A stretch of DNA of 62,765 bases, counting the filler, from Collodictyon triciliatum (taxonomy: Eukaryota): NCBI GenBank assembly GCA_043381765.1. It is 5 parts of 5 records of this genome, joined end to end, with 100 filler letters (N's around TTAATTAATTAA, not from the genome) between each part and the next. Parts side by side here need not be neighbours in the genome. Positions count along the whole stretch, not along the records: positions 8,776 to 32,966 come from JBHJMP010001256.1; 4 more parts are not named here. The stretch is one strand, 5' to 3'. The number at the start of each line of letters is the position of its first letter. Within the stretch, counting starts at the first letter, position 1. The notes beneath the pieces are model-generated. The model did not search any database. It had not been told where the DNA came from and saw only the letters and a list, made by a program, of their open reading frames with translations. The translations under genes and the position numbers were made by a program. Shown here piece after piece: positions 459-44,072 of this stretch.

Positions 459-2316
459 ATGACTGGCACGGAGTCGAAGCAGCAAAAGCGGCAGAAAGAA
501 GACTTTGAGTCGGCGATGGATCAAGTATTAACTCAATTACACACAACTTCACACCATCCAGCACTCTTTCCCACTCGCCCTTCTCCATTTTAATTACGTG
601 CATAGCCTTTTCAAAAGCGTTCAACGCCAGCTGCAAATACCAGTCGGGTTATGAGTCGATTATGATTATGATTATTATTAAAGAACAATCCTCATCATAG
701 CCGCTATCATATTTGTTTAGCTGCAAACATCACAATGATGATATGCTTTCCTTCAGATCGCCCAGCTTTTCGAGGAACTGGACAGCCTCATCGCCAAAGA
801 ATTGAGCGTGCAAATAGATGCAATCATGGAGGCTGAGACGGGGCTTATCGATGAGGTATTGTCTCACAGAAGAGCCGGACGGAAGACTCGCTCAATCACC
901 CAACAAAACGTCAACAAACAAGCATAAAAAAATATAAAGGAAAAGATGGAAAAGAAAATAAATCGTATTAAAATAAAGACAGAAATTAAACAAGAGAAGA
1001 AGAGAAAAATAGAACAGGATCGACCGTGTGAAATGACCCATACAATCCAAACACCTATGCAGGTACGAAAAGAGAGACATCAGATTCAAAAGGAGCTTTC
1101 TGGCCAGGAATTAACACTGATGCATCACCACAGCTCCATTGGCCGCTTCTTTTCGCTTCCAAGAAAGAAAACAGTCCATCGTTCCCATCACCTTCAAAAT
1201 CAAGACCCGTACTCGTCTGTTTTCAACTACAATACTTTGAAGGCGTGTACTTCAACGGATGGTAAAAAGACACATCTTGCTCATGCAGACACCACACTTC
1301 ACATCATTCTTCATCTTCAAACAAGCATTGGTCGCAGCTTGGTAAATCCAGGCGATTGGCTCAGCTTTGGGTTCCGACCAGTGCGGCGAAGTGTCGAAAC
1401 AATCAACGACCCTTTTTTGGTTTTGGATTGTTCAGAAATCCCCCAGACATCAATGGAAACCATGACTGGACAGTACCTTAAAGAAGCTGCATCAAAGAAA
1501 GTGATGAAAAGAAACGGAGTCCACTTCCATGGGGCGTGGGGCATTGCTGTCCATCCAAAGTCGGGAAACCTGTATGTGTCAAACTATTCGGGCCACCAAA
1601 TCAGAATCCTCAGTCCGGACTTGGACAGCCTGGGATATCTCGGAGGGCCTTGTGGACGCAGCTACGATGTAAATACATCCAAAGTTTCCAGCGGAAGGGA
1701 AAGAGGACAGTTGAAGTATCCCGTTGGTGTCGTGTTTAGGCGCGATTGTTCACTTTTGGTTTCGGAGCATATGAACAATCGGGTGCAGCTGTTTAGCAGC
1801 GAGGGCCAATCTGTATGGGTTTCCGGGTCATCAGGGTCTGGCAACGGCCAGTTTTGCAATCATTATGGAATTGCCATGGACATGGATGGAAACTGCTACA
1901 TCAGCGACTGGGGGAACGAGCGGATTCAGAAACTGGACAGAGACGGCAAGTTTGTGTGTCTGATTGGTCCGCGCGGCTCGGCAAACCCTGCTCTCAAGTC
2001 GGATGGGCTGCTGGTCACGCAGTCGAGGACGCTGGTATCGGTCGGAATCGGAGCGGCTCTTGTCAACGAATATGAATTAGATGGCTCGCACATTCGCTCG
2101 TATCCGATTGCGCAGGTCCACGGCTACAGCTCGATATGTCATGGGCCGAATGGAGGTTACGTGTTGTCTGACCGGGACGGGAACCAGTTGCGCTTCTATT
2201 CGAGGTCCTTTGAGCTCATCAAGCAACTCAGTATTCCTCATCCCTCAAGCGTGGCCTACGGGCTCGATGAGAGGCTGTATGTCACATCGATGAACAATGT
2301 TATCTACGTGTTCTGA
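459..2316 (+). CDS. NHL-repeat beta-propeller protein with N-terminal helical/coiled-coil region (TRIM-NHL-like), spliced
   Basis: The C-terminal ORF has repeated NHL motifs (GAWGIAVHPKSGNLYVSN, GQLKYPVGVVF, GQFCNHYGIAMDMDGNCYISDWGNERIQK). Upstream exons MTGTESKQQKRQKEDFESAMDQ | PFQKRSTPAANTSR | IAQLFEELDSLIAKE...IDE | VRKERHQ join in phase 0 via GT-AG introns. The true start could lie further upstream. Confidence 0.8.
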
Positions 2317-2674: not shown

Positions 2675-5461
2675 TTATTCAGTTAAATCCAGTGTCAAGC
2701 GAACAATCTACCAGACATTAAATCATATGGGGAAGTGAATGTTAATTGTTGCATCAATATATTTATAAGAAAAAAATGCTGCATGTCGGCTTCATATGTG
2801 CATAAACAAAACAAAACAAAAATAAGAAAAAACAGGAGAATGAGTTGGAGCAAATGTAGGGAGTAGCCAAATAGTTCAAACCTGCATCTTTGTCTCGGGC
2901 CCACCTTTGATGCCAGTCACATAACGCGCCTGAACAGGGACATTTGTAGAGCTGTCCACCGTGGTCTGCTGGTTCTTTTCCCTGTGTAATTTTGCATTAT
3001 GCTCTGCTTTTTAAGAGGGAACATGATGTATCTTGCATTATTTCACTCAGACAACTGGACGATGTCAAGTTTTGCTCATACTGTACATAGGCATACCTTT
3101 GTTCATAATGCTGGGTTGTATTTTCTCGTCGGAAGTGGCTTTTTCCAGTCTGGGTAGAGTGCGTTGCTTTGCTTCTTAGGTTTGTCTGTAAAGTTCGGAA
3201 AAGTATACGATTCTTAATTTTATTATATTTGTGTGCAAGACCGTTTCATATGTGCCCATTCATATTTATGAATTTCCTGAATGGAGTATAACCACAAAAA
3301 TTGTTTGTTATATGCCTGGTTATCATTCTTTTCACATGAAGTTTAGAAAAGAAAATATATTATCATGTGTCCACATACCAATTTTATTGCTCGTCTCCTC
3401 AACTCCCATTCGTTCCACTGATTATAAATATCGTTCAAAAATTAGTAAATATCTTTCAAACGAATCGCCTTGAAAAATTGTATTCATTTATAACTTATAA
3501 CAGACATAAAAAAGAGAGAAGATAAGCATATGTGTTTTACCGTATAATCTTTTTCGATGTATGATTCTACAAAATGCACAGGTGTCTCAGTAGATGCATC
3601 TGCCTTTGTTATCTGTTTGATTTATTCTATTTTATTTTTTGGTTTTCATTCAAAAAAGGCGAATGGAACTTAAATTATCAAACATAATCAAAATAGGGGT
3701 TTGTGAGTACAGAGTATTCGCAAATGTTTTTGCCATTGCATATTTTTGCTAGATATATATGCCAGAGGGAGAAGGAACAGGCTATTATGTTCCAAAATTG
3801 TGTGAATTCAAGTTTAGGCACACTACCCTGGATGCCAAGAGCGGATGGACTCCCTGGCGATTACGGCCATATTGCGATACGATTCTGAGTTGTGTAGTTC
3901 AAATTTTAGTGATATATATACTAGTGTCAACAATAAAAGTCTTTAAATTGTAATCATCTAGACAAATGCCAAACAACCAATGCCGCGTAATTTTCTGAAG
4001 CCACTTACGACATGTCAGGTATGTGTTTATGTAAGTCCAGTAAATGAATGAGCTCAGGAGCCTTTTTGGCCATATCAATCACACCCTGGAAATACCTAGG
4101 TTCAAAACTGTTTTAGAACGTGCCCCATTCCTTTGGAGAAAAAGGAAAGAAAACTCCTAGCAGCAAACGTTTGAAATACTCGAGTTGATTCAAAATCAAT
4201 TGATACGTGTAATTTCTTTCGATAAGAAAAGTTTTATTCAGCAGGAATCTCTACACTGGGACATGGAAAAGACGATGTGCATAAGAATGCTGGTACTGAT
4301 TGTTTTTTTTTTAAAAAAAAAATACTTTTCGGGGTCACGCTGAAAATCAGAGATGCCCTTCGAGCTTGTGAAGACAAAATGCATATCTTTGTAGGCAGCG
4401 ATACCTAAACAAATGATAAGAAAATATTAAGACTTCCATTAAAACATCGACATATAACACAAGTGGCTGTGTAACGAATAAATATGATAAAAACGAATAA
4501 AAGGGAAGATAATTTAAAAAAAAAAAAAAACAGGGAGAACGGTCGCTTTATTTTTCATAAATTTCACGTCCATATATCCTGCATTTTTATGTAACACACA
4601 ATTACATGTAAACACAGAAATTCATATATGGCATAAGTGTACCGAACATTCGATCTCCTGGAAGCGCCAGCCCCCCGCGGTGAATCAGAGTCCACGGACA
4701 GTATCCCTGGATTTAATTGTTTGGATTGGAATAACATATTATGTGAGATGAGACTTTGCATATTTTGGCTTTCGTTCATTCTGTAGTGAGCAGTACGATG
4801 ATAAATATACCACAGTTTGAAATGGATTAAATGATAAATGTGATGGAAAATTCGAAGTTGGCAGTTCAATAAAACAGCAGGCTGATTATTATGCTCAGAG
4901 AAGTAAATTTACTTTAAAATCTAATGGAATATCACGGAATTTGGGATGATTGCTTTGTGGGAGGATGATATCAACAAGCGGGGCTGATTCAATCGCTCTT
5001 GGAGTCTCATGTGGCGTTTGCGTCTCAACTACATATTTATTTATTTTATTTTATTTTATTTTATTTTTGCTTCAGTTGAATAAAAAAAAATATATATTGG
5101 GATAGTATTTCTGTGATTGATATTTATATTTTTTTATGTTTTGAACATTGTCTTATATTTGTATATATGCAACATTAAAAAATTTCATTATTACGAATGA
5201 TGTTGTATATGTATATTTATATAGTAACTATCAATAGAGGACAATAATAGAAAAGGAATGAAGATTGATATACATATCGTATCAATGAAAAGAATATACC
5301 TCTTGTTTCTGCGTGGACTCGTGCGACTCTTACGTCATCACTGATTAATGATGGCTTGAATGTTGCCTCAACTTTAAGGAGAGCATCAAGGACGCCATTT
5401 CGAATCTACACATCAGGATTTTGTGGCCTTTAAATCAGAGGAGCAGAAAAATTTGCACTTA

Positions 5462-5528
<67 letters not shown>

Positions 5529-8422
5529 ATAGATGGAACAAGATGAAAACGAATAATATGGCTGTGTATGTATATGAATAAATGTAACAGTGAAATCATC
5601 GATGTATGAAAACCTTCATCTTGTCGAATTCTTGCTTGATTTGAGCCCACAATCCAGCTATCGCAATAAATCTTGGCTAGGATATATGTAAACTTCATAT
5701 CTTTGTCGAAACATATTTATCATAAAGACAGGCATTATATCTTGATTGCTCTAGGTAAAATTAGCAAACTTGTTTACAAAAGAGCCGTTTTCATGTTATA
5801 TGTAACTATATTCTCTACTCATACTTTGTTTGATTTAGAAAGGAAAAAAGGGGAGAGTTATTACTCACAAAAACTTGGTCAGTAGGAACCGCAGACCGAG
5901 ATTTGACGATGGACTTCAACTCTGCAAGTCTTTGGGAATACTGTTCTTTGGCGTCCCATAACTGTGTCCGGATAGATGTTGCCTCTTGCTATAGCAATAG
6001 ATGATGGTTCGTAAAAAAAAAAAATTACTGATTTCATGTGTCCATTAAAACTTAACGGAAATAGATGATTTACTACTTGACCACAACTAGCTCATTTTAT
6101 TCGTATATTTTGTTTTAAAATTACATCATACATTCAAAGACATCAGGTATGAAAGGAATTGTCTTCGGTTGTTGAGTTCATCCTGCAGTTTTTGAATGGG
6201 TGCGCTGATTTGCATCTCGTTTCTGTGGACACTGGATATCACCTACACAAAACTTTTTGAGTGGAGAGAAATAAAGTGCGGTATGATTTTCCGGTAAATT
6301 CGAAAGGTTCCTTGGAATAAATTCTTTGGTTATTAAAAAAATAGAAATAATGTCAGTAATGTAACGAGAAGTGTGTTCATAGAGCATAATTTTAATCTTA
6401 ATGATTGAACAATATTTATACATGAAAAATATATGTCACACATATGGGATGAAGAAATCATGATAGGGTTTGGATGATAAAAACTATGAATTCAAATCCC
6501 AACTAACCGAAACGTAATCTTCCACTTGCTGCTCTACAATCTTTAAGAGGGCTTCAAGTCTTGTGCACACCTGCTCAGTCATTGAAGTGGCTTGCTTTGA
6601 AGCTTTCGGGTATGAAGATATTTTAATGTAGCAAACGAAAGGTTCATCTTGCTTTTTTCAATTATGATGGTGTTCAAGGATATTTTCTTTTTTTTTCTTT
6701 TTTCTTTTTTTCCTGGATTCACAATTTTTTTTTCCTTTATTCGATTCAAAGTGTAGCGAGATGGATTCACAATCTTACTATCATCGATTCCAGCGCCTCC
6801 TTGGCCAATATCCTTGTTGAAGAGTCGAATTCCAACCACAATATTTGTCAGTTCTGTAAGTTGTTGTTCTTTTTCTTTGTTTGTCATCTCCACAAAAGTA
6901 GGTAAATCTGACTGAGGGAAAACACTAGATTCAAGTGAAACGATGTGTTTCGTTAAAAAAAAATGAATATATCGAACAGTATTGTAGAAAAAAATTTTCA
7001 CAAGTAGAACAAGTTTGCATTAATCTGGTCAAAAATAGAGACCTGTAACACTAAATTCATTTAAAAATTGCAGTAAAAGCTCTTCATGATGAATGAAAAA
7101 AAAATATGACAGAAATAGGTCATGATTATTTTTTTTTATAAAAAAACCTCTCTAAGGCAGCAGCAGCTTCACGCACGACATCGATATCTGTGGGCGAACC
7201 CAACTCGCTTGTAACAAGCATAAATGTGATTATTTTCCGATACAATGCTGGACGGATATCCTCGGTTAGAAGAATAGAAAACAAAAGCAAGAGGATATTT
7301 TTACATTGTGTGATGTATCGATTTAAAACACAAAACGCAATCAATACACATTAAAATATCAAATAAATTATGTTAAAAATTCTTGATTTTTTGCAAATAT
7401 AAATATAGGACTTTTGCAATTGTGTTAGAAAAGTACCTTCTGATGTTCGCATTTTGGCCTCAAGAATTTCCTTCAACAGGGAGAAAATCTGCTTCGATTT
7501 TCGTTCCTTTTCATTTGCTTCAGCTTCCGTCTCTGTGATGTATGCAGAACCGTATGCCACTTGCATTTTGATTGTTGTCATTGCAGCAGAATTTTGGTCT
7601 TTCACCCGTGAGACACAAATCTATTGATTTTTTATTTAAAAATGAATAATCTCATAGAAGGATTAGCGTCATTTGGTAAATATTATCAGACAACATAAAA
7701 TTGCTGTTAGCATTGAACATAGGCATAATTAACAAAGGAAAATGGGTGCATACGTAGATAAATTGGTCAACGAATAAACATCTGGAAAAATATTTCAGGA
7801 AGGGAATCTGTTCGTTACCTGTACAAGTTTTTCCACTGCTGTTCCACTAAGCTCTTCATTCAGATTAAATTCCTTCCAATAAAACCGAATGAGTGAGTAG
7901 AAATCTCTGCTGAATTTTAGGTGTGTATGAGCTGGAAGTAAAAACAGAACAAGAAAAAGAACCAGGAACAAAACAAAACAATAAGAAAACATAACAAAAT
8001 AAAATATAACAAAATAAAACATAAGAAAACATAACAATAAAACATAAAATAAAACAAAACAAAACAAAACAATAAAAAAACATAAGAAAATACAAAACAA
8101 AACAAAAAAATAAAAAAATAAAACAAAACAATAAAAAAACAGAAAACAAAACAAAACAAAACAAAACAGAATAAAAAAAACAAAAAACATAAGAAAAACA
8201 AAATAAAACAAAACAAAACAAAACAAAACAAGATTGCTGGGAAACATCGAACAGAATATAACAAGATACAATATTGCCTATTATCAAAGAACAAACCGAA
8301 GATCTCTCCAGAACAACAGCCTTTAGCAGGAAAATGACCAAAGTCTCTTGGACGTGGATCCCATCGCGATCGCAACGCTCGATGATTTCGTTTACCATCT
8401 GAGACACAAGCTTCTCTGCCAT
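2675..8422 (-). CDS. CFAP206: Cilia- and flagella-associated protein 206 (multi-exon)
   Basis: Spliced exons give MAEKLVSQMVNEIIERC..., TIKMQVAYGS, LESVFPQSDLPTF...QLTELTNIVVGIRLFNKDIGQGGAGIDD, GYCPWTLIHRGGLALPGD, KAPELIHLL, TETPVHFVESYIEKDYTWNEWELRRRAIKLTNLRSKATHSTQTGKSHFRRENTTQ and a final exon IVRLTLDLTE*. These are characteristic CFAP206 motifs. Confidence 0.92.
6714..6773 (-). mobile_element. Short retroposed insertion, copy A (36 bp plus 12-bp TSD), CFAP206 intron
   Basis: TGGATTCACAAT at 6714-6725 and 6762-6773 flank the reverse complement of TCTCGCTACACTTTGAATCGAATAAAGGAAAAAAAA. Confidence 0.85.
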
Positions 8423-8675
8423 TTATATGCTCGTGTCTGTAATACTCTCAACTTGGACGTAACGCGTCTGAGGATAAGGTGGGAGTTAGAGACAAAAACA
8501 CGAAGGGCAGAGAGTGTAAGGCAGAGTGAAGAGTCGCTCGAAAGATTTGTGCATTTCTTTCTTTTTTTCTTTTTTTTCTTTCTTTTTTCTTTCTTTTTTC
8601 TTTCTTTTTTCTTTCTTTTTTCTTTCTTTTTTCTTTCTTTTTTCTTTCTTTTTTCTTTCTTTTTTCTTTCTTTTT

Positions 8676-8775
8676 NNNNNNNNNNNNNNNNNNNNNNNNN
8701 NNNNNNNNNNNNNNNNNNNTTAATTAATTAANNNNNNNNNNNNNNNNNNNNNNNNNNNNNNNNNNNNNNNNNNNN
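8676..8775. other. Artificial contig linker (N44-TTAATTAATTAA-N44)
   Basis: Six-frame stop spacer embedded in Ns; the same structure occurs four times. Confidence 0.95.
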
Positions 8776-9884
8776 CGAAAAGGTCACTTTACCACATCCC
8801 TTACAACACAGGTTATGCACCGAGACACACCCACGATCAAGACGCCAGCTGCCACCGACCCGTGAGTACAACAAACCACCAATAAGACGGAGCGAGCTCT
8901 TTGAAACAAATAAGATTAATAATAATAAAGGGGAATAAAAAAAAAAAGGCCTATCGGGCTCAAGCCATCAACCCACGGGTAGCAAGCTAATTATGAATAT
9001 AGTGTTCAGTTTTAGTTGCTCTGATTCATTCAACTGTTTCTTTTTCCCTATTCATTTACCTTTTCTTTCTTTCTTCATCTTTTTATCTTTTTTTTTTGCT
9101 TTTCTTTTTCTTTTCTTTTTTCTTTTTCTTTTTCTTTTTCTTTTATTTTTTCGGTCTCATTCAGCCTGTAAATGGATGTACTTCATAACAAAGGTTGTGA
9201 CGAACTTGGTTTTATCTCTTTCAAGGCACAACACTTTTTCTACAACGAAAGTGTACCAATATATATACCCATACATATACCATTTTATTGCACAGACAAC
9301 CATCGAATTTAATCTGGATTGACAAAAGCAAGAGCTTCGATGAATCTAAGAAAAAACCTGAATAATATAATAATATAATTAGTATAAACAATAAGGTTAA
9401 AAATATTCCAATAATCTCATTCTATTCCTGTAATCAATTTACATTTTTTTTCGTTTATGTAATATTAAATTCAAAAAGGACAAACAAGCCGTTGCCTTGG
9501 CCCAGACAGAACCCACCTTATAAACCTGCCACCAAACATACATTTCAAAAAAGCATACTATCCACACTTGCGGCAGTAATCACGTTGTTTGGGGCCGATA
9601 TGTTGACTTTCAGTCGCAATGGTTATACGGCTGTCCTTTCGAACTTGCCGAAACAGCTCTCAGGGTTTTGTCTCAAATCACTTGTAAAAAAAAAGTTGGT
9701 GTGTTTGTTTGCCACAATGCGTACATTTTGAGAGTCTCGGTGGATGCTTAATTTTACCTCAATTGATTTTGTGCAGTTGTTTTATATACATATTAAATTG
9801 ACTAATTGACTAATTGACTGAAGTTTTATTAAAATCGAAAACTCGGTAGTTTTCTAAAGGAAAAAATAAAACAAAGACTTTCAG

Positions 9885-11760
9885 ATGAAGAAGAGAAAAC
9901 GTCTTGAGTCTGAGAATATGAAGTCTGTAAAACCACACTATCCGAATGTGAAAACATCCCTAAAGTCGATTGTAAAGAATGCGGATGGCTATGACAAAAT
10001 CAACGACACGGTTTTATTGTGTCATAATTTGGTTACCGACAGTTATCTGTTTGCAAGATGTTACATATTGAAATCACAACAACTCCCAACAATCGATCAA
10101 AAGTGTTTTTTTGTACGCTTTAAAGACAGCCGGAATAGCTCCACAAGATAAACCCTCAAGTTAAAAAAAGAACACATATCAGTAAATACATGACTTTTTA
10201 TCTCAATGATTTTCGATTCCTTTTGTCTCGAGAAGAACGCTTTCCCTCGATTAGACTGACTCATCTATTACCGTAATTGGCGAAGCAAATGTTAACAGCT
10301 TATCATAATAACATTAAGGGACATTTTGTAAAGAGGTTACTGCGCTTTATAAATCAAACAGTTCCTAAAGATGAGAATATTACGGAAGCTATTAAAAAAA
10401 AAGGCAGACTTACGAAAGTTAAAAAGAAGTCATCTTCAAGAAACTCGAAATACCGGAACATTACAAAGGATGGGCTGCAATGCATTTGCATCATATCATT
10501 CCCAGCGATATTGTAAATGGTATCGAATATGACGTCAAACTCAATCCAAATAAGTACATTCCATATGTGATTTACATGAATCCCATTTTTTAGGACATTG
10601 GAACCAAACTGTTTCAACCAATCTCTATAAGAACTAACAATATACCATGTTATATTTTTCTAGATACTGCATGTTTGATAGGTATATTGGTATTATCTGG
10701 AAAGACGTTATTACCGAAGAATATACCAGGATGCATAGAGACCCTATGGGATAATTTCTTTGAAATGAAGAAGAGGGATTTTCATCAAAGAGACTACAAT
10801 TTTATATTCGTGATACAAACAGACGGCTTGGCGGTGTCATTATTGTTTGAAAAGAAAGCTATTTCAAATTCAAAATTCAAATATAACCAAAAAAACCCCA
10901 AGAATGTATTTATATAGATGAACTTTCCGAAGAGCATTTATCTTCATTAGCGAAAAAAAAATATAGTTAGAGTACACGCATGCAAGTTTATTTGGTTTAC
11001 ATGGTGGATGAGAAAGGTAAGAAATTACTTTACACGTCACACCAAACAAGACATGATAGCAAATCTCTTGAAAATCACAAAATACTCTTGCGCGAGAAAG
11101 AAAAGTGCAATCCTTTTCGGATATGCATGGTGACAGATTTACTAAATGCTGTTTCTTTTGGTCGCATGAATTTTGAAGAGAATCAGCGGTTTGAGACATC
11201 GAGAGTATCTTTAATCGATTTAGAGACAGAACTGAGTAAACATAATTCATGCACGGTCGATTATGAATAATTTCGGGAATATGTATCTATGAAATCAAGA
11301 TACCAGATAGAATTATCCAGGTTTTATAAACAAGTAACTTTTCGAAAGATGATAAGGAGACAGCATGTTAATACAAAAAGTAGAGAAGAATTCTTTATGG
11401 ACCGAATCGAAAAGACATTCGGCAAGGATGTTGTACTGGTGTATGAAGACTGGAGTAGAAAATCTCCGATGAAACCTTCTATGCCAACAATCGGAAGAGG
11501 ATTACGAAAAATACTATCCAAATGTTTTGAAACAGCTAGTGTAGATGAATTTAGAACCTCCAAGATGTGTCGCAACTACAAAAAGAACTGGAATATATGA
11601 AACCGAAAGGAAATACAAAAAAGGGTGTATAGATGTCTCATATGTAAAGAATGCAATCGCCCAGAAAGCAAACAAAGTGTATTCTTGACAAGGGACTTTA
11701 ACAGCGATAAAAATATACTCAAGTATTTTCAATCATTCAAAAAAAAAGCATACACCTTCC
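9885..11760 (+). pseudogene. Degenerate Fanzor1 (eukaryotic TnpB-like RNA-guided RuvC nuclease), frameshifted, intronless
   Basis: Broken ORFs over ~1.9 kb (~620 codons) read KTSLKSIV...INDTV...NLVTDSYLFARCYIL, YHNNIKGHFVKRLLRFIN, IQTDGLAVSLLF, YIDEL...NIVRVHACK (decayed RuvC-I), FGKDVVLVYEDWS...MPTIGRGLRKILSKCFETASVDEFRTSKMC (RuvC-II plus Zn finger) and VYRCLICKEC...TRDFNSDKNI (RuvC-III). Confidence 0.88.
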
Positions 11761-11774
11761 TCTAAAAAACAGGC

Positions 11775-11965
11775 TGTCGGGTCTTTCCTGGTAACCTTCA
11801 CCACTACACGATCTTTTGTGAAAAAAGTGGTGAGACCTTGGATACTAGCGGATCAGGTTTACCAAACTTTCGATTGGTATACCATCTCTAGTTGGAGAGT
11901 GTAATTAAAAGAAATCGTGACGGGTGATAACCGAGTTAATTTTTTAATGACTTTGCCAAAGTTGC
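11775..11965 (+). ncRNA. Candidate Fanzor omegaRNA scaffold / element right end
   Basis: It lies directly 3' of the Fanzor ORF. Stems: TCACCACT(11798-11805)/AGTGGTGA(11826-11833), ACTAG(11844-48)/CTAGT(11888-92) enclosing GGTTTACCAA/TTGGTATACC, a GGT-GATA-ACC hairpin (~11918-11938) and GACTTT/AAAGTT (~11949-11963). Confidence 0.55.
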
Positions 11966-12387
11966 AAGATGCACTGTTCAATCAAACGATATGAAGCGGC
12001 AAAAAAATAAAAAAAAATGATATAAACAAACAAAAAAAAAAAAACAACAAAAAACGATGAACTCAGCGGACGACATGCGATGCACAGAGGCCTCCTACAC
12101 GACCGTTTGTGGAAAATAAACCTGCAAAATATAATAAACAACAAAAAAAAAACCAGAAAAAAAAAAAACTTAACATAAAACTGCGGAATATCGCTCCAAA
12201 CCCAGGAAATACCGTGCGCAGTGCGGTGTGAAATATCCCGAAAGCTGCATATGATGTATTGGAGAATTGACTAAATGGTTCTAAAAGTATTGGCTTGATT
12301 TATTGACTATTAAAACAAAAAGGTGCGTTTAATAGCGCTAACACTTTCCTTTTCTCTTTCCCCTTTTGTTGCAGCAGGAAACGTGCG

Positions 12388-23000: not shown

Positions 23001-26000
23001 TCTCTTCTGAGTTTTGTTTCTTGGCGTCATTAGCCCAAAAATTATCCTTTTGCTTCACGGTGGATGCATTCATTTGACTGGTATTGCCATCTTGCAGTGT
23101 ATTTGTGCTTGTACTAAGATTAGCGTTTGCTTGCTTCGGTGCAGGGTCTTGAGTTTCTGCTTGAGACGGAGACGACAGATTTATTTTTGCAGAAGTTTTC
23201 ACCCCAGACGAAGAAGTAAGTGATGATGCAGACCCTTCTTTAGCAACCAGAGGCACTTTTGTCGATGTGTTTCTGGAAGTCGCAACTTTTTTCCCAGCAG
23301 GCAAAGGTGCATCGTGCTCCTGTCCTTTGGCATCTTTTGTCTCTTTTGACAGTAAAGAGGGTGTTGTTCCATCCTTAGAATCAGAGGGATTCGAAGTAGA
23401 CGCAGTTGATTTGCTTTTAGAGTCATGATGGCTTAAGGGGCCCGAATGAATGACAGTGTCTGCAATTTCTTTGCGCCCTGAAGAATTGGAGGTCGTGGAT
23501 GGCGCAGTTTTCCCTGGGATGTAGCTCGTCGCAGAGTTGGAACTAACTGACTGACTATGTGAGGGAGGTTGTGTTGGACCCTGAGCCAAAGAGGAAGTAG
23601 AGGTCCCACTTGTTTGTGGGGTGGTTGATTCATTTTTGGGAGGTGAGTGGGATTTCACTCCCGAGGCCTTCTCCACTTTGGTAAGGTTTGAGTTTGGTTG
23701 TGAAACACTCGGGGTTGAGGGTGCTGCAGGGGTAGGTTTCTTTGAGGCACTGGAAGTGACGCGAGATGAGGTCGAATTTTCCGTCACTTGCTTGGGTTTT
23801 GCGGCATCTGGCAAAGGTCTTTCAGGGGCAGGTGTAGGGGCTTTGGAATCAGTCGCAGTATTTTGTGTGCTTGAATTCTGCTTTTTTGTCGATTGATTTC
23901 CAGATAATAGATTGCCCGTTGATGAGACCGTTGTAGCTTGAGTGGTATTAGGAGGTGTTGTGTATGATGGATTGGGAGGATAAGCTTCGTTCTTTTCAAT
24001 CTTATTCTTCCGTTCATATTCGTTCTTTTCAGCATCACGAGTTGAGTTGCTCCTGTCGCTTGATGTGTTTCCGGTAGATCCAGCGGAATTAGTTTGGGAT
24101 GAGGTTTTGTGTGGCTGATTCTGTATTTGAGGTTGTGTCTCAACTACAGATTGGTGGTTGCTTCTCTTTTTTGACGGTTGAGAGACAGGATGAGGGCTTG
24201 ATTGTTTCAGAACATCTGGTGCGTCGGGGTTTGGTTTGTTTGCTGAAACCTTTCCGCCATCTGGTATGGAGATATGGGCTTCTGGAGTTTTCTTTGAGTG
24301 TTGATGGCTTGTTACCGCTGCGGCGAGAATCTGTGATTGATGGGTAGCTGAGGTATTCGATGCGTGGGTCTGTGATTTTTGGAGTTCTGATGGTTGGTTC
24401 GTCCCTGTACCTTTTTCGGATGAGGAAGGTTTCTTCGGATGGTCTTCGTGTTTTATTGGCGAGGAGTCAGCAACTTCATCTGGTGGGGATACATTTTGAG
24501 AAGTTTGTTGAAGTTGAGGTGTTTCACTTGGTGGTGGGGGGCTGGGGTCCGCCGAAGTGGACTTACGGTTAACCTTGTAGCTGTTTGTTGAGCTCAAATG
24601 GTATGGGTACGAAAATTCTCCAATTAAGTTATCATGATAGACCCAAGGATTTTCTTTCTTTGTCATCCTCCACAAGCAAACGAATATCGATACACTTATA
24701 GCGATGAATAATCTGCGCAGAGCCTCTCCAAATGGAGTAGAAGGTATCCTGTCTGCACAATCCGCCAATAGGTCGTAGGGTAGCGTGGATACAATGGGAA
24801 TCACGGCCAAAACCTGATAATAGCGCAGATGATCAATGCCGGAGAAATCATCATATTCAATGTCTTCCTTAAATATTGGTGACCAAAAAAATGCGCGGTC
24901 TGATAGAATAAAATAGTGGGAATAATAATAAAACCTTGGATTGTGGGGAAATAATTATCAAATCCTTTTCAATTAAAGAAGAGTGAAAGTCAGGTGAGAA
25001 TGTCAATGACAGCGTGGTATGTTCTCCAGGGTGGAGGGTTATTTGGGTACAGTTTAAGACTTCGAATCCGTATGCCCCGCTAGATAAGTGAAATATGTAA
25101 AGATTAAAATGTCTGAAAATACTGAGATGGGACCAAGAACGTTTGTTTTTCTAATACATTACCATCCTTTTCCATCAATTTTTGCTGTTAGGTTTTGAAG
25201 AGGTAATTTCCCTGTGTTTCGAATTTGGACAGACTGCTTTTGGGTGATAATATTGCCGCATCCTTCACCTAATTTGAAAGAGTGTGTATACGTCAGTTCA
25301 GTCTTAGATGTCCTGTTTTCCGTTATTTTTTTTTCTTCCTTTATTTGTGTGCGGTACACAACTAAAGATACACTCACCTGAAAGCAAAAATTCTTCAGTG
25401 AAATTGAAACGAATCGATGATATAGTAGTGTTATCACCAAGAGAGAGAAATTCTAGGATTCCTTCACCGCCCTACAGGTTTTAAAGAAAAAGAGAAATAA
25501 GATAACAATAAAGTAGCCATCGTAACTGGATGGATATGATTTCAAATGAAGCTGTCGCTTGATTGATAACTAGGTATAAGCGAAGAATAAACAAATAAAT
25601 AATTGGAAATATCTGTGGAAACAAACTTCGCCACGAAGCTCAACAATTTCCAAGATGGTCAGGTTATTTTTTAAGTATAAAACAGCGTGATGAGTTTGAT
25701 TATCCGTTGGCTGGAAATATATAGGACCGAGTAGCGTATATTCTTGGGGCATTAGCACAACGCCCTATTTTTCAATTACAGATTTTAGGATTGGCCAAAA
25801 AGAAGAGTTGTCAAATCAATCACGACATGGAGAAATGTTATTTTCTCCTTCGTATCTAATACTAACCTCAGAGGCTCTTGGTGACATCGAAAAATAGTCC
25901 GACAACGGAGAGAAATGAAGCGGGAAAGTTTGGTTGGCACAGGTTGAATTCGGCGGAAAAGGTAGTATCTGCACGTGAATAGGGACATCGGACGGGTTTG

Positions 26001-39375: not shown

Positions 39376-40065
39376 CCTATCTCTCTCCTTTTCTCCTTTT
39401 CTCTCTCTCCCTCGGCCGGCCGCTTTCTGCGCTGAACCTAACCCTGCACTTACTCCACACAAACACCTCGGCAGCCTACACAACACGGCCTCGTTTTGCG
39501 GCAGCGAACCAGACGGAATGCTACAGAACAGCGACGATTACAACCCAACCCTTGAAGGCACCGTGACAGAAGCGAATCTGTCTTTTTCACGGCCCGTTTG
39601 ACCGGCTCGCAATCTTCAGAGCTGCATGGGGGAACTATCTTCGGTCGCTCCAAACCACAAACAATTGGAAATACCACCACAGCCGAAAGGCGCACAAGAG
39701 GAGGCGAGCGAGGAAAGACGGAAAGAGCCGGTTTCCAAATGTATAATTTCTGAATACGGAATATATACATATTTGAATCAATTTCTTGCAGTATATGCTT
39801 GGCCGTAGTGCAAACACACTATAATATTCAGTATTATATTTTTATATGTATCAATTTTGAAAACAGCCGCAACGGACAGTAACGGCGCCGTGTGCAATGT
39901 GGCGTAAGCATGCTATACCAGTCGCTTTTTCCACACCAAACACACACGACCAAACATATTCGCCCGCTGCTTCAAAGAACCCGCCACTTCTCCTGTCAAT
40001 CCTCTTCACACCCTCCGCTCCGCTCCACGCCGCTCACTCAGACTCACCCACAAGCATACACCTGC

Positions 40066-43000
40066 ATGGGCTGCGGACAAACCAAAGTCCGCCCGGCGCC
40101 TCCTCCAACCCCGCCCCAACCGCAGCAAACAAAGACACCGACCCAGGCAGATTCTCGGCCCCAGGAAAGCCAGAAAGCAGAGACTGCCGCAGATGTTCCC
40201 CAGCCCAACGCACCGAGTCAGGTCGAGACTTCACCTGTGGAAGAGTTCCGTCCTTCGCCTTCACCTTCGCCGACTCCAACACAGACATTGCCTGAGCCGC
40301 AAGGGAAAAGGCCCGGGCCAGAAAGCACGCTACAGACTTTCGCCGAGAGCACTACCATCGCGCCGCACACGTCGGAACAGCCTGCAGAGCAGAGAAGGGA
40401 TGAGCAGCTAAGCGAGGCAGTCGGCGACCCAAAGACTGCAGACGCAGATGGCCAGAAAATAGATGAGATGCAGCTGTCTGACAAACAGCAAAGCACAAAT
40501 CCGTCCCTGCGGATAGACGAGCCAAAGCCTGCCGATCCTGCTTCTATTCCGTCTCCGAATGTGGTGGAGAAGCGAAGGCTCCAGCGCATCATCTCTCGCG
40601 GCGAGTCCATGAAGAAGGTCTCTGTGAAACCACCCGATGCAGCAGACCTCGAAGAGCTGATTTACATCCGCGTCTTCTTGTCGTCCACATTCAAGGATAT
40701 GATGGAAGAGCGCAATGCACTCATCACTCGCACGTTCCCAGAACTCAGGGAAATTCTCGAAAATCGCGGAATCACAATCACAGAGGTTGATCTCCGCTGG
40801 GGCATTACCATCCAGGAGTCTCAGAACGGGCGGGCAATCACTCTATGTCTGGAAGAGATATCAAACAGTCAGTACTTTGTCTGCTTTCTCGGTGACCGCT
40901 ATGGTTGGATTCCCGACCGCTCTGACCCGAAGCAGTACAACCCCGAGCTCGACGTGTCGCATTCCTGGCTGCATAACTTCCCAGATATTAGCGTAACTGA
41001 AATGGAGGTAAGATACACAACATAAACAAAATAAAATAAAAAAACATCATAATAATGTAAACCATTGCTAAAAAAAAGAAAAAAAAAAGAGAACACTAAA
41101 TCATAATGGTTAAAACCTTGTGAACTTATAGACCCATCAAACTTTCGCTTTTTTTTTTAACCCCCTCCCCTACCTTTACCTAGATTCGATATGCTGCACT
41201 GAATCCGAATCCAATAGCAAAGAGAAGTTTTTTCTATTATCGCAAATCAGACGGCCGCAAAGTTGAAGAACCTCCAGGTTGTGCAGAGAAACAGTTAGCC
41301 CTTAAAGAGGAAATTAGAGAAAGATTCGAGGCCAAGGTTTTTGCCTCTGGGATTGAGCTGGCTGACTTTGTATTGGCTGATATCAAAGAAGGACTTAGGC
41401 TTGACTTTCCCCGTCACCATGAAGAAATCGACTCTGTAGCCCTGGAGCACATAGCACACAACCAATTCGGACTCAGCAGATTAGAGATCTTCCATGGCCA
41501 GCAAGAGCTAATCGACGAAATGACAGAGTATACGAAGCAGACCGAGCAAAGATACCCATATATCATTTCCGGTCCTCCTGGAATGGGAAAGTCAGCAGTG
41601 ATGGCCAAAGTCCATTCTCTCGTACCCAAAGAAGAGCGATTTATTCACTATGTTGGATGTAGCAGTGAAAGTGTCCAAGTTGAGTTTTTGATATTGCGCA
41701 TTTTGCGGGTTTTGGGCATTTCTCTGCCGAGTGGAGGTGATATTGATGTTGTCAGCGGCTTTACTCAAATCCTCTCAAAAAACTTCAAAGGAGACACGAA
41801 ATATGTATTATTTATTGATTCAGTCAACCAGCTAGAGGATGACGCCAGTCGCCCATTCGAGCTCAACTGGCTGCCAAAAGTTTTGCCCCATAATCTTCTT
41901 ATGGTGTTGAGCTGCACAGATGACCACCCCGCCATGCAGTCCGCCGAGTCACGCAATTGGAAATCAAGGAAGATTGGATTTCCATCGAGCACAGATGTGG
42001 ATAAAACCATCATAGATTGTCTATCTAAATTTTCTAAGCGACTTGTAGAGGAGCAAAAAACAATCCTGGTGAACGCAGAGCCTTGCCGCCATCCACTCTT
42101 CCTTCGCGTTGCAGTTAATGAATTGCGAATCTTTGGAAATTTTGAGCTTCTCACAAAGAAAATATATTCCATCATCGAAAATCCAACTGTTACTGAGCTT
42201 TACGGGTCCATAATCCAGAGATGGGTCGTGGACTACCAATCCGACACATACCCAAATATTGTTATCGATACTCTTTGCGCCATAGCTGTAAGCCGTGCAG
42301 GATTGAAAGAGTCAGAGCTTCTCCAATATGTAAAGGTACCTCGTGTGGAGTGGTTCCCATTCTTTGTTGCCTTGAAGAGCTCGCTCTTTTTGCAGCACGG
42401 CCGATACACATTTTCACATCAGCAATTAAGAGATGCTGTCTTTAACAGGTTCTTTTCCATCAAGGATGAAAATGGAGGAAGCTTTAAGAAATCGGTGCAC
42501 AAGAGGCTTGGAGGTTACTTTGTATCATGCTTGCCAAACATCGATGAAGACGAAATGGTGGAAGCGGCCTACCAGTTCTCATGTGGAGAGCTGTGGAGCG
42601 ACCTACGCGAATTTCTCATTCACTCTGATGTAATTGACGAGCTTCTAACCACCAACTGGAAGCTGGAAGTGTTGCAACATTGGCGAAACCTAGACCAAAA
42701 CGGCTACGACCCGGTCAAAGAGTACAACTCTCTTTTAGAAAATGAATGGAACAAGAACCGGGCTATCCGTGTTGCAAAACTTTACACTGGACTTGGTCGA
42801 ATTCATGATTCGATTCATCTGTACGAAATGATTTTGGACGATGAGGAGCGTTCCATTCTCGTGGAGCGCACTCCGGTCATCTACAACGATCTCGCTACTT
42901 TGTACAAAAAGATTGGAGAATTTCAGAAGGCGAGAAAGATGTACGAGCTCACCACTGAAATTATCAAGGTTCGAGATGATGAAAACAGGGACGACATGCT

Positions 43001-44072
43001 GTCCACTGCCTTGGAAAATCTCGCCATGGTTGTCTCGGAGACGGGTGACCATATACGGTCCTACGAACTTTATAAGCAGTCGTTGCAGATTCGAATGGAC
43101 AAGTATGGGGATTCACATCCAGACGTAGCAAACGTCTTCAATAATCTGGCATTGTTACTGAGTCGCCAGAAAAATTATGCACATGCTGTCGAGTATTACC
43201 AAAAGAGCTTGTTAATCATGGAGTCTGTATATGGAAAGGAACACGTTAATGTAGCCACCATACAAAGCAACATGGCGTCCATCTACCTCAAGACCGACAA
43301 GTTGGAGGATGCCTTGAAACTGTTTCATTCCGCTCACAAAATCCTGTCGAAGGCATTTGGAGAGGAAAATCCCGATGTCGGCACTATTTTGGACAATACT
43401 GGGGCTGTATATCGTAAACTCGGCCGCTTGAATGAGGCATTAGAATACCACAAGAGGGCAATAGGAATCTTTGAGCGGACCTTTGGTGGTGAGTACCACG
43501 GACTGTCCACCCCACTTTGCAATCTAGCGTTGTTGATGAAAGATGTCAAAAACTACTCGAAGGCTGAAGAGCTCTACCTCCGGGCCTTGCACATCGACCA
43601 ACTCAAGTACGGAATGGAACATGAGAACGTGGGGTCCATCCTGTCCAACCTTGGGGCGCTGCAGATGGCCCAGAGTAAGTATGCCGAGGCCCTTGAATAC
43701 TTCCGGCGGTCGTACGGCATTCGCCAGCGACTCCAATTCACAGACACTTCTGGGATGGTCGGGTGCATGATGAACATGGCAGCCATGCAAGCTCGCCTGC
43801 AGAGAAATGCCGACGCCATTGGGGTGTATACATCCGTGATACCAAAGATACAGGCGCTGGGAGCCACCTTTGACCGGGATTTGGCTGTGGTTTACCACAA
43901 TCTCGGGATTCTCTATTTCAATGAGCAGAAGGATTCCGATGCTCTTCTATGGTTCCAAAAGGCGCTAGACCTGGAGAAAGCAGTATTCGGAGAGGAGAGC
44001 GAGGAGGTGAAAGAAACAGTGGAATACATCGACGAACTCACCGACCCCGCCCCTGATGAGGAAGAGGGTTGA
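40066..44072 (+). CDS. DUF4062 + P-loop NTPase (NACHT-like) + TPR protein, nephrocystin-3-like architecture; exons 40066-41007 and 41184-44072
   Basis: N-terminal MGCGQTK acylation motif; IRVFLSSTFKDMMEERNAL...VDLRWG...LGDRYGWIP...SVTEMEI (DUF4062); Walker A GPPGMGKS; Walker B VLFIDSVNQL; about ten 42-aa kinesin-light-chain-type TPRs (HPDVANVFNNLA). Confidence 0.9.

Follow-up and report, generated by a model that had tools for sequence, protein, structure and literature searches.

Fanzor1 is a widespread family of RNA-guided nucleases, recorded in fungi, protists, arthropods, plants and giant viruses in the survey of PMC10432273 and arranged in four clades in that of PMC10530073. Three members have solved structures: SpuFz1 from Spizellomyces punctatus (8gkh), PpFz1 from Parasitella parasitica (9cf0) and GtFz1 from Guillardia theta (9cer). 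In the structural account of PMC11423790 two residues of the Fanzor1 catalytic triad are Asp, one placed on a beta strand and the other on a helix, and the third is a Glu in the loop immediately ahead of the TNB domain. Fanzor1 shares with Fanzor2 and prokaryotic TnpB (of IS200/IS605 and IS607) a RuvC nuclease that is interrupted by this zinc-finger domain, and in these systems the element's 3′ end specifies the guide RNA, as described in PMC10432273. Here we describe a related locus in a window of 62,765 nucleotides, filler included, from Collodictyon triciliatum, the window being the whole stretch of DNA that was analysed. Positions 9885-11826 on the plus strand very probably represent a neutrally decaying Fanzor1 pseudogene, one copy of a multi-copy DNA repeat of about 2.3 kb or longer.

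The relic begins at an ATG at 9885 and extends for approximately 647 codons with repeated changes of frame. It was read using a frameshift-aware protein-to-DNA alignment, written for the purpose, with the closest intact relative as guide. This is P0163, an environmental protein of 648 residues encoded on a 2610-nucleotide metagenome contig. Identical residues number 368 over 640 aligned positions (57.5%). The alignment is colinear, with no gap the size of an intron, and relative to P0163 there are ten changes of frame (near 10101, 10162, 10421, 10897, 10962, 10990, 11577, 11624, 11721 and 11738) and three in-frame stops: TAA at 10274-10276 where P0163 has Tyr, TAG at 10591-10593 where it has Glu and TAA at 11268-11270 where it has Lys. 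Four more stop triplets, the TAGs at 10918, 10948 and 10968 and a TGA at 11598, lie off the reading path with this guide. No uninterrupted frame of about 600-650 codons is present. With the more distant P0004 (634 residues) as guide and a heavier frameshift penalty, 241 of 590 residues are identical, and the path contains four frame changes and a larger number of stops. The number of lesions is therefore somewhat dependent on the guide, but the frame is broken with both. The limits of the pseudogene follow from the two alignments and from tblastn segments. A first-pass annotation of this DNA had described an intronless, frameshifted frame, as we find, and had ended it at 11760, which is too early; the gene relic runs to about 11826 and the repeat to about 11867.

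On sequence comparison the assignment of the relic to Fanzor1 by descent is firm. A read-through of its C-terminal half (P0001, positions 10971-11765, stops written as X) was compared with the PDB using phmmer and matched the Parasitella Fanzor1 with an E value of 3.5e-6 and the Guillardia protein with 0.0079. At E<=0.01 a profile built from P0001 and nine relatives matched three distinct sequences in the PDB and no others, all of them solved Fanzor1 nucleases: PpFz1 (3.4e-66), SpuFz1 (1.2e-62, nearly full length, profile positions 13-592 of 623) and GtFz1 (2.6e-54). The same three matches, PpFz1, SpuFz1 and GtFz1, were returned with P0163 alone. No Fanzor2, TnpB or Cas12 chain appeared at E<=0.01 with the family profile against the PDB, and the family named in the first-pass annotation is thereby upheld. 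Among 1.84 billion representative proteins P0001 gave 1249 matches at E<=1e-3, 357 at <=1e-10 and six at <=1e-30, with P0003 matched at 2.8e-57; among 5.8 billion proteins P0163 was matched at 2.2e-81. Similarity at these levels is far beyond chance. P0163 shares 58% identity with P0001 over 97% of the latter, P0164 and P0165 share 52-53%, and further protein fragments 54-58%; a search for near proteins contributed only two such fragments, at 55-58%. A scan of IMG/VR found relatives encoded in 298 of 325 candidate stretches, the best with 42-43% identity and many on contigs of giant-virus metagenome-assembled genomes. In a scan of metagenome contigs at least 345 of 595 candidates held relatives, mostly from the same giant-virus group, and the best identity among the matches listed was 43%.

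The window family and the solved Fanzor1 nucleases are of similar size, approximately 620-650 residues, and have the same motifs, G-x-D-x-G-K, a Glu ahead of the TNB zinc finger and R-D-x-N (PMC11423790). The positions of the three motifs in the relic coincide with those of the Fanzor1 triad as given in that account. The present copy differs from the solved enzymes in that it is a pseudogene and has His in place of the first catalytic residue. The window lineage differs further by an insertion of 33 residues after the RuvC-I hairpin, at 11112-11210. It is the only large difference in length between the relic and P0004, being absent from that protein and from the other aligned relatives. Since P0163 and P0003 encode the same 33 residues, the stretch is coding sequence. 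Its site is distinct from the break in the alignment of the profile with PpFz1, where about 110 PpFz1 residues are skipped; these we take to be a candidate for the FRI insertion of PpFz1.

The motifs that the first-pass annotation had named, IVRVHACK, VDEFRTSKMC and RDFN, are all found at the places it gave. The RuvC-I relic IVRVHACK occupies 10963-10986, flanked by the frame changes near 10962 and 10990. The codons ATA GTT (10963-10968) are followed by AGA GTA CAC GCA TGC AAG (10969-10986), encoding R-V-H-A-C-K, so that the catalytic Asp is replaced by His (CAC, 10975-10977) as previously noted. Asp, within G-x-D-P-G, is present in each of the nine aligned relatives covering this site. The earlier account counted four single-base changes from GVDPGK, the form that P0163 has; compared with other DNA copies (G-V-D-A-G-K or G-M-D-A-G-K) the window displays three amino acid changes, Gly to Arg, Asp to His and Gly to Cys, together with one silent change.

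In Fanzors, as characterized in PMC10530073, the canonical RuvC-II site is taken by an inert residue, Gly or Pro, and a conserved Glu has moved to a position downstream. At the canonical position (11445-11447) Gly is found in eight of ten aligned rows, in the context Y-G-[DN]-W-S. The window has Glu here (Y-E-D-W-S) and P0003 has Asp; both are taken to be secondary changes. The downstream Glu, at 11547-11549 in the window and E193 in P0001, is invariant in all ten rows, the window included, and the window family thus displays the rearranged RuvC-II that typifies both Fanzor1 and Fanzor2. This Glu lies within VDEFRTSKMC (11541-11570), which also carries a T-S pair and the first Cys of the zinc finger. 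The TNB zinc-finger relic spans 11568-11653 in the alignment to P0163. The cysteines had been reported as retained; three of the four are, but the frame change near 11577 removes the first pair's second Cys, and the frame resumes near 11624. RuvC-III is kept as R-D-F-N (11691-11702, Asp at 11694-11696).

The Fanzor1 motif set out by Bao and Jurka in 2013 reads D-X(125,275)-[TS]-[TS]-X-X-[C4 zinc finger]-X(5,50)-RD (PMC3627910). It is kept whole in all the aligned full-length relatives. In the window T-S and R-D persist, the first Asp is His and one of the four Cys is gone, and for this reason we class the locus as a family relic, not as a working member. This copy no longer functions. Its frame is broken some ten times and interrupted by three stops, and both a catalytic residue and a zinc ligand have been lost, in agreement with the earlier view that the gene is dead.

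The locus is one copy of many. Contigs of four public runs, two labelled as coming from a coded organism (X1 and X2) and two freshwater metagenomes (X3 and X4), were matched to 9600-12000 at a likeness of at least 85%. X1 gave 358 contigs (59 at 99% or above, 80 at 95-99%, 131 at 90-95% and 88 under 90%) and X2 gave 335 (42, 78, 121 and 94 in the same order). The metagenomes gave 36 in X3 (1, 7, 19 and 9) and 125 in X4 (8, 14, 48 and 55). Hundreds of contigs that are 85-99% alike from 9600 to about 11867 identify the window locus as a member of a multi-copy repeat. Contig depth is high from the first bin (9600-9680) and close to zero after 11867, which sets the right end of the repeat at about 11865-11875, some 40 nucleotides past the gene relic. 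The left edge lies at about 9523 or further to the left, as records 2 and 8 extend 80 letters to the left of 9603.

Three of the window's lesions are read differently in other copies. Position 10276 is C, giving TAC in place of TAA, in every covering contig of X1, X2 and X3 and in most of the depth in X4. Where the window has the TAG at 10591, GAG appears in a loose end of X2, and the RuvC-I motif is G-M-D-A-G-K-F or V-G-V-D-A-G-K-F in three loose ends of X1 and X2. Relative to the window, other copies also gain a base after 11579 and lack one at 11623, which matches the short excursion of frame in its zinc finger. The first-pass annotation had anticipated better copies, and this stands in so far as such variants exist in X1 and X2 and the intact P0163 exists in a metagenome; a fully intact copy of the close family was not seen among the contigs of the four runs.

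Upstream of the ATG, depth of coverage shows a leader conserved in other copies (9600-9884, plus strand). A 110-nucleotide stretch within it, 9740-9849 on the same strand, is bounded by GT and AG and is missing from some X1 and X2 contigs (joint 9738>9849). A second joint in these runs, 9663>9849, is likewise GT..AG, and other joints nearby are not of this type. If X1 and X2 are RNA the stretch may be an intron of the 5′ untranslated region (UTR) with alternative donors; an indel between copies is equally possible. The two runs are only guessed to be RNA and we therefore do not call the joints as splicing.

To place the lineage, a quick IQ-TREE tree of 75 rows was calculated from the window, 23 of 80 viral loci and 51 proteins of at least 230 residues taken from P0003-P0059 and P0163-P0165, shorter ones being dropped. 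This tree has no root and includes no references labelled Fanzor1a-d. The partner of the window in it is P0163, with a Shimodaira-Hasegawa-like approximate likelihood ratio test (SH-aLRT) value of 99. The pair adjoins a clade of P0164 and P0165 with the starred group P0004, P0005, L001 and L002, and here the support is weak (SH-aLRT 87, not starred). The viral label changes at least four to five times on the unrooted tree. A new Fanzor lineage, as put forward in the first-pass annotation, is not supported in that form, since the window and P0163 sit within this weakly supported group that also holds giant-virus Fanzor1.

The nearest labelled relatives, L001 and L002, come from giant-virus contigs, the first 254 kb long and the second 82 kb. 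In both, a transposase of 343-346 residues with DDE_3 and helix-turn-helix domains lies directly upstream of Fanzor1 on the opposite strand. The composite element is about 3.3 kb (L001:2506-5821 and L002:2499-5821, transposase minus and Fanzor1 plus), with terminal inverted repeats (TIRs) of 32-33 nucleotides that are 97-100% complementary, the right one beginning 16 nucleotides past the Fanzor1 stop. A short GC hairpin spans the inner edge of the right repeat. Genes for the ribonucleotide reductase small chain (L001) and for an mRNA capping enzyme with guanine-N7 methyltransferase (L002) are neighbours. Homologues of that transposase occur in 58 of 160 fetched loci, a count drawn from two sets that partly coincide and contain many truncated loci. 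In layout these relatives correspond to the Tc/mariner-type elements with Fanzor1 that Bao and Jurka reported from large DNA viruses and protists (PGv-1, PUl-1; PMC3627910). The window unit looks to be Fanzor1-only, and in this can be likened to the non-autonomous, Fanzor1-only families PUl-4 and CMe-1A of that paper. In contrast to the Tc/mariner-Fanzor1 elements, neither a TIR nor a TA duplication nor a transposase relic was found in the window.

Could the gene nevertheless be alive, its breaks being introns, programmed frameshifts, a variant code or sequencing errors? Introns are possible in Fanzor genes according to PMC10530073, and the window is a draft with N runs near the locus (8676-8775 and 12533-12809). 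Slippage mutations and sequencing errors both concentrate at homopolymers. A homopolymer run of five or more bases lies within 12 nucleotides of nine of the ten frameshifts, and a few of the indels could be errors of assembly, a point that counts against the pseudogene reading. Such runs number 17 in the relic and 43 in four unbroken host open reading frames (ORFs; 462, 687, 955 and 962 residues), although this control is biased because the frames were picked for being open. The substitutions are untouched by this caveat, namely the three stops, the Gly to Arg and Gly to Cys changes and the Asp to His change, which no indel produced. The colinear alignment to P0163 shows no gap the size of an intron, and other copies differ from the window at exactly the sites of lesion. 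A variant genetic code was considered and ruled out; the stops stand opposite Tyr, Glu and Lys, a mixture that no single reassignment could explain, and host ORFs of up to 962 residues are open under the standard code. We regard a living gene as highly improbable. Still more remote is a domesticated, nuclease-dead derivative of TnpB or Fanzor serving the host as an RNA-guided DNA-binding protein. Replacement of the first catalytic Asp with retention of the Glu and the last Asp is what such a protein might display, but ten frameshifts and three stops leave no open frame and the Asp is kept in other copies.

A less remote, though still unlikely, explanation is that the relic was left behind by a giant-virus segment that had integrated, or by a mariner-type element carried by a virus, and not by a transposon that multiplied in the host; on the identity of the gene this overlaps with the decaying repeat copy that we prefer. 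The position of the window and P0163 next to the clade with L001 and L002, at the unstarred support of 87, would fit, as would the abundance of relatives in the 325 IMG/VR candidates, the place of the L001 and L002 genes beside ribonucleotide reductase or capping-enzyme genes, and the AT-richness of the relic compared to host exons (G+C 34% as opposed to 44-58% in host ORFs). Identity to the viral genes is, however, only 42-43%. Pfam searches of the six frames of 5000-9900 and of long ORFs tested elsewhere in the window found no viral hallmark and no transposase, and a short unit ending at about 11867 in hundreds of contigs is the pattern of a dispersed repeat.

Several results weigh against a decaying copy of a mobile Fanzor1 repeat. 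Searches of window pieces and read-throughs with Pfam and NCBIfam gave nothing significant, the best being Cas12f1-like_TNB at E 0.14; the Pfam TNB model reached its cut-off in one of five relatives scanned (P0008, 28.8 bits). A repeat search of the whole window for TIRs gave only low-complexity pairs, local alignment of the right end with 9150-9900 scored 23 (shuffled mean 18.3, maximum 28) and blastn-short of 11800-11900 against the window gave nothing. The six-frame Pfam scan of 5000-9900 revealed no transposase relic, and when the L001 and L002 transposases served as tblastn queries on the entire window the strongest match had an E value of 0.061 and lay at a distant site. No target-site duplication was found in the window. 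With TIR, duplication and transposase all missing from the window, mobility is deduced from copy number alone. The window's own base at 10276 occurs in no X1 or X2 contig and so the exact locus has not been independently re-observed. At the 3′ end a hairpin is predicted at about 11808-11846, but folding of 11690-11880 gave a z-score of -1.53, with 16 of 200 shuffles folding equally well, which is not notable; there were no Rfam matches and no tRNAs.

How the intact ancestor of the pseudogene would have worked can be suggested from its homologues. It would have been an omegaRNA-guided endonuclease of about 650 residues that cleaves double-stranded DNA. Fanzors carry N-terminal nuclear localization signals, as reported in PMC10530073, and the opening M-K-K-R-K-R of the relic (9885-9902, plus strand), identical to the first six residues of P0163, fits with this; the KKRKR patch is a candidate signal that would direct the protein to the nucleus. 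The protein would bind an omegaRNA that is transcribed from the element's 3′ end. By analogy with the elements described in PMC10432273, the scaffold of this RNA would extend over the last part of the gene as far as the right edge of the element, with the guide taken from the flank. The corresponding site here would be 11700-11867 (plus strand), the end of the gene and about 40 nucleotides up to the repeat edge as defined by contig depth; as the repeat ends so soon after the relic, there is room only for a scaffold that overlaps the gene. DNA that matches the guide and is flanked by a target-adjacent motif would be cut by the triad, the Asp of G-x-D-x-G-K, the Glu before the TNB domain and the Asp of R-D-x-N. 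Such cutting would help a mobile element, probably a transposon of some type, to persist.

A dead copy of Fanzor1 is of little consequence by itself, the family being widespread (PMC10432273) and decayed transposon genes expected, and this one is an unexceptional relic within a known family. A literature search found no paper that joins Fanzor1 and pseudogene, with the proviso that the supplementary catalogues of PMC10432273 and PMC10530073 may already list the host. The value of the locus is as a pointer. The host, or near relatives represented in public runs, has many copies, some with an intact catalytic motif; the intact P0163 of 648 residues is directly testable; and the nearest labelled relatives lie in mariner-like elements of giant viruses, which bears on the movement of the nuclease between viruses and hosts. 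It is possible, though we are doubtful, that all of this belongs to a still active, transcribed, multi-copy Fanzor1 family of a freshwater protist, with a spliced 5′-UTR intron, the catalytic triad kept, the 33-residue insertion and no more than 58% identity to catalogued proteins, sister to the mariner-borne Fanzor1 of giant viruses. If so, exchange between virus and host would be indicated and a new programmable nuclease would be on offer. Two findings count against a live family. One is the lack of a fully intact close copy among the contigs of X1 to X4. The other is provided by two X4 contigs that read Cys-Cys-Asn followed by TGA at 11580, where P0163 has Cys, the fourth residue of the first pair; either these copies decayed there too or the consensus letter is uncertain (agreement 0.97).

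The window looks eukaryotic on the basis of its gene content. A partial Bax1-I match has the look of a single exon. A nephrocystin-3-like gene (39883-44072, plus strand) is divided over two ORFs in different frames, 158 nucleotides apart, and comprises DUF4062, then AAA_22/AAA_16 and seven TPR_12 stretches; TPR_NPHP3 scores 118.6 bits with a cut-off of 100. Comparison of this nephrocystin-3-like ORF with the ESM Atlas gave a mixture of bacterial and chordate clusters and so no guide to host taxonomy. A six-frame scan of the left flank also gave a weak match to FAP206, a flagellar-associated family, at about 5900-6100 on the minus strand (E 0.0037, 17.1 bits, below the cut-off of 33), the one hint relevant to the description of the genome as that of a flagellate in the first-pass annotation.

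Long microsatellites and a G+C content that swings from 27% to 59% add to the eukaryotic look of the window. Paired N runs of 44 nucleotides with 12 bases between them occur at 8676-8719/8732-8775, 32967-33010/33023-33066, 49710-49753/49766-49809 and 53273-53316/53329-53372, and a single run of 277 at 12533-12809; all may be gaps or masked stretches. The sites at 8676-8775 and 12533-12809 are in or beside microsatellite tracts, approximately 1.1 kb and 0.7 kb either side of the relic. Two 2-kb bins, 16001-18000 and 20001-22000, have a G+C content of 58.7% and neighbouring bins have 27-35%. In the second of these bins a Ser/Gly/Pro-rich ORF of 687 residues (20008-22071, minus strand) is followed by one of 955 residues, rich in Ser, Thr and Pro (22087-24954, minus strand), neither with a Pfam match. 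Most other genes in the window are interrupted, and an uninterrupted ORF of 462 residues (928-2316, plus strand) has matches to NHL repeats and to SMP-30/gluconolactonase-like proteins.

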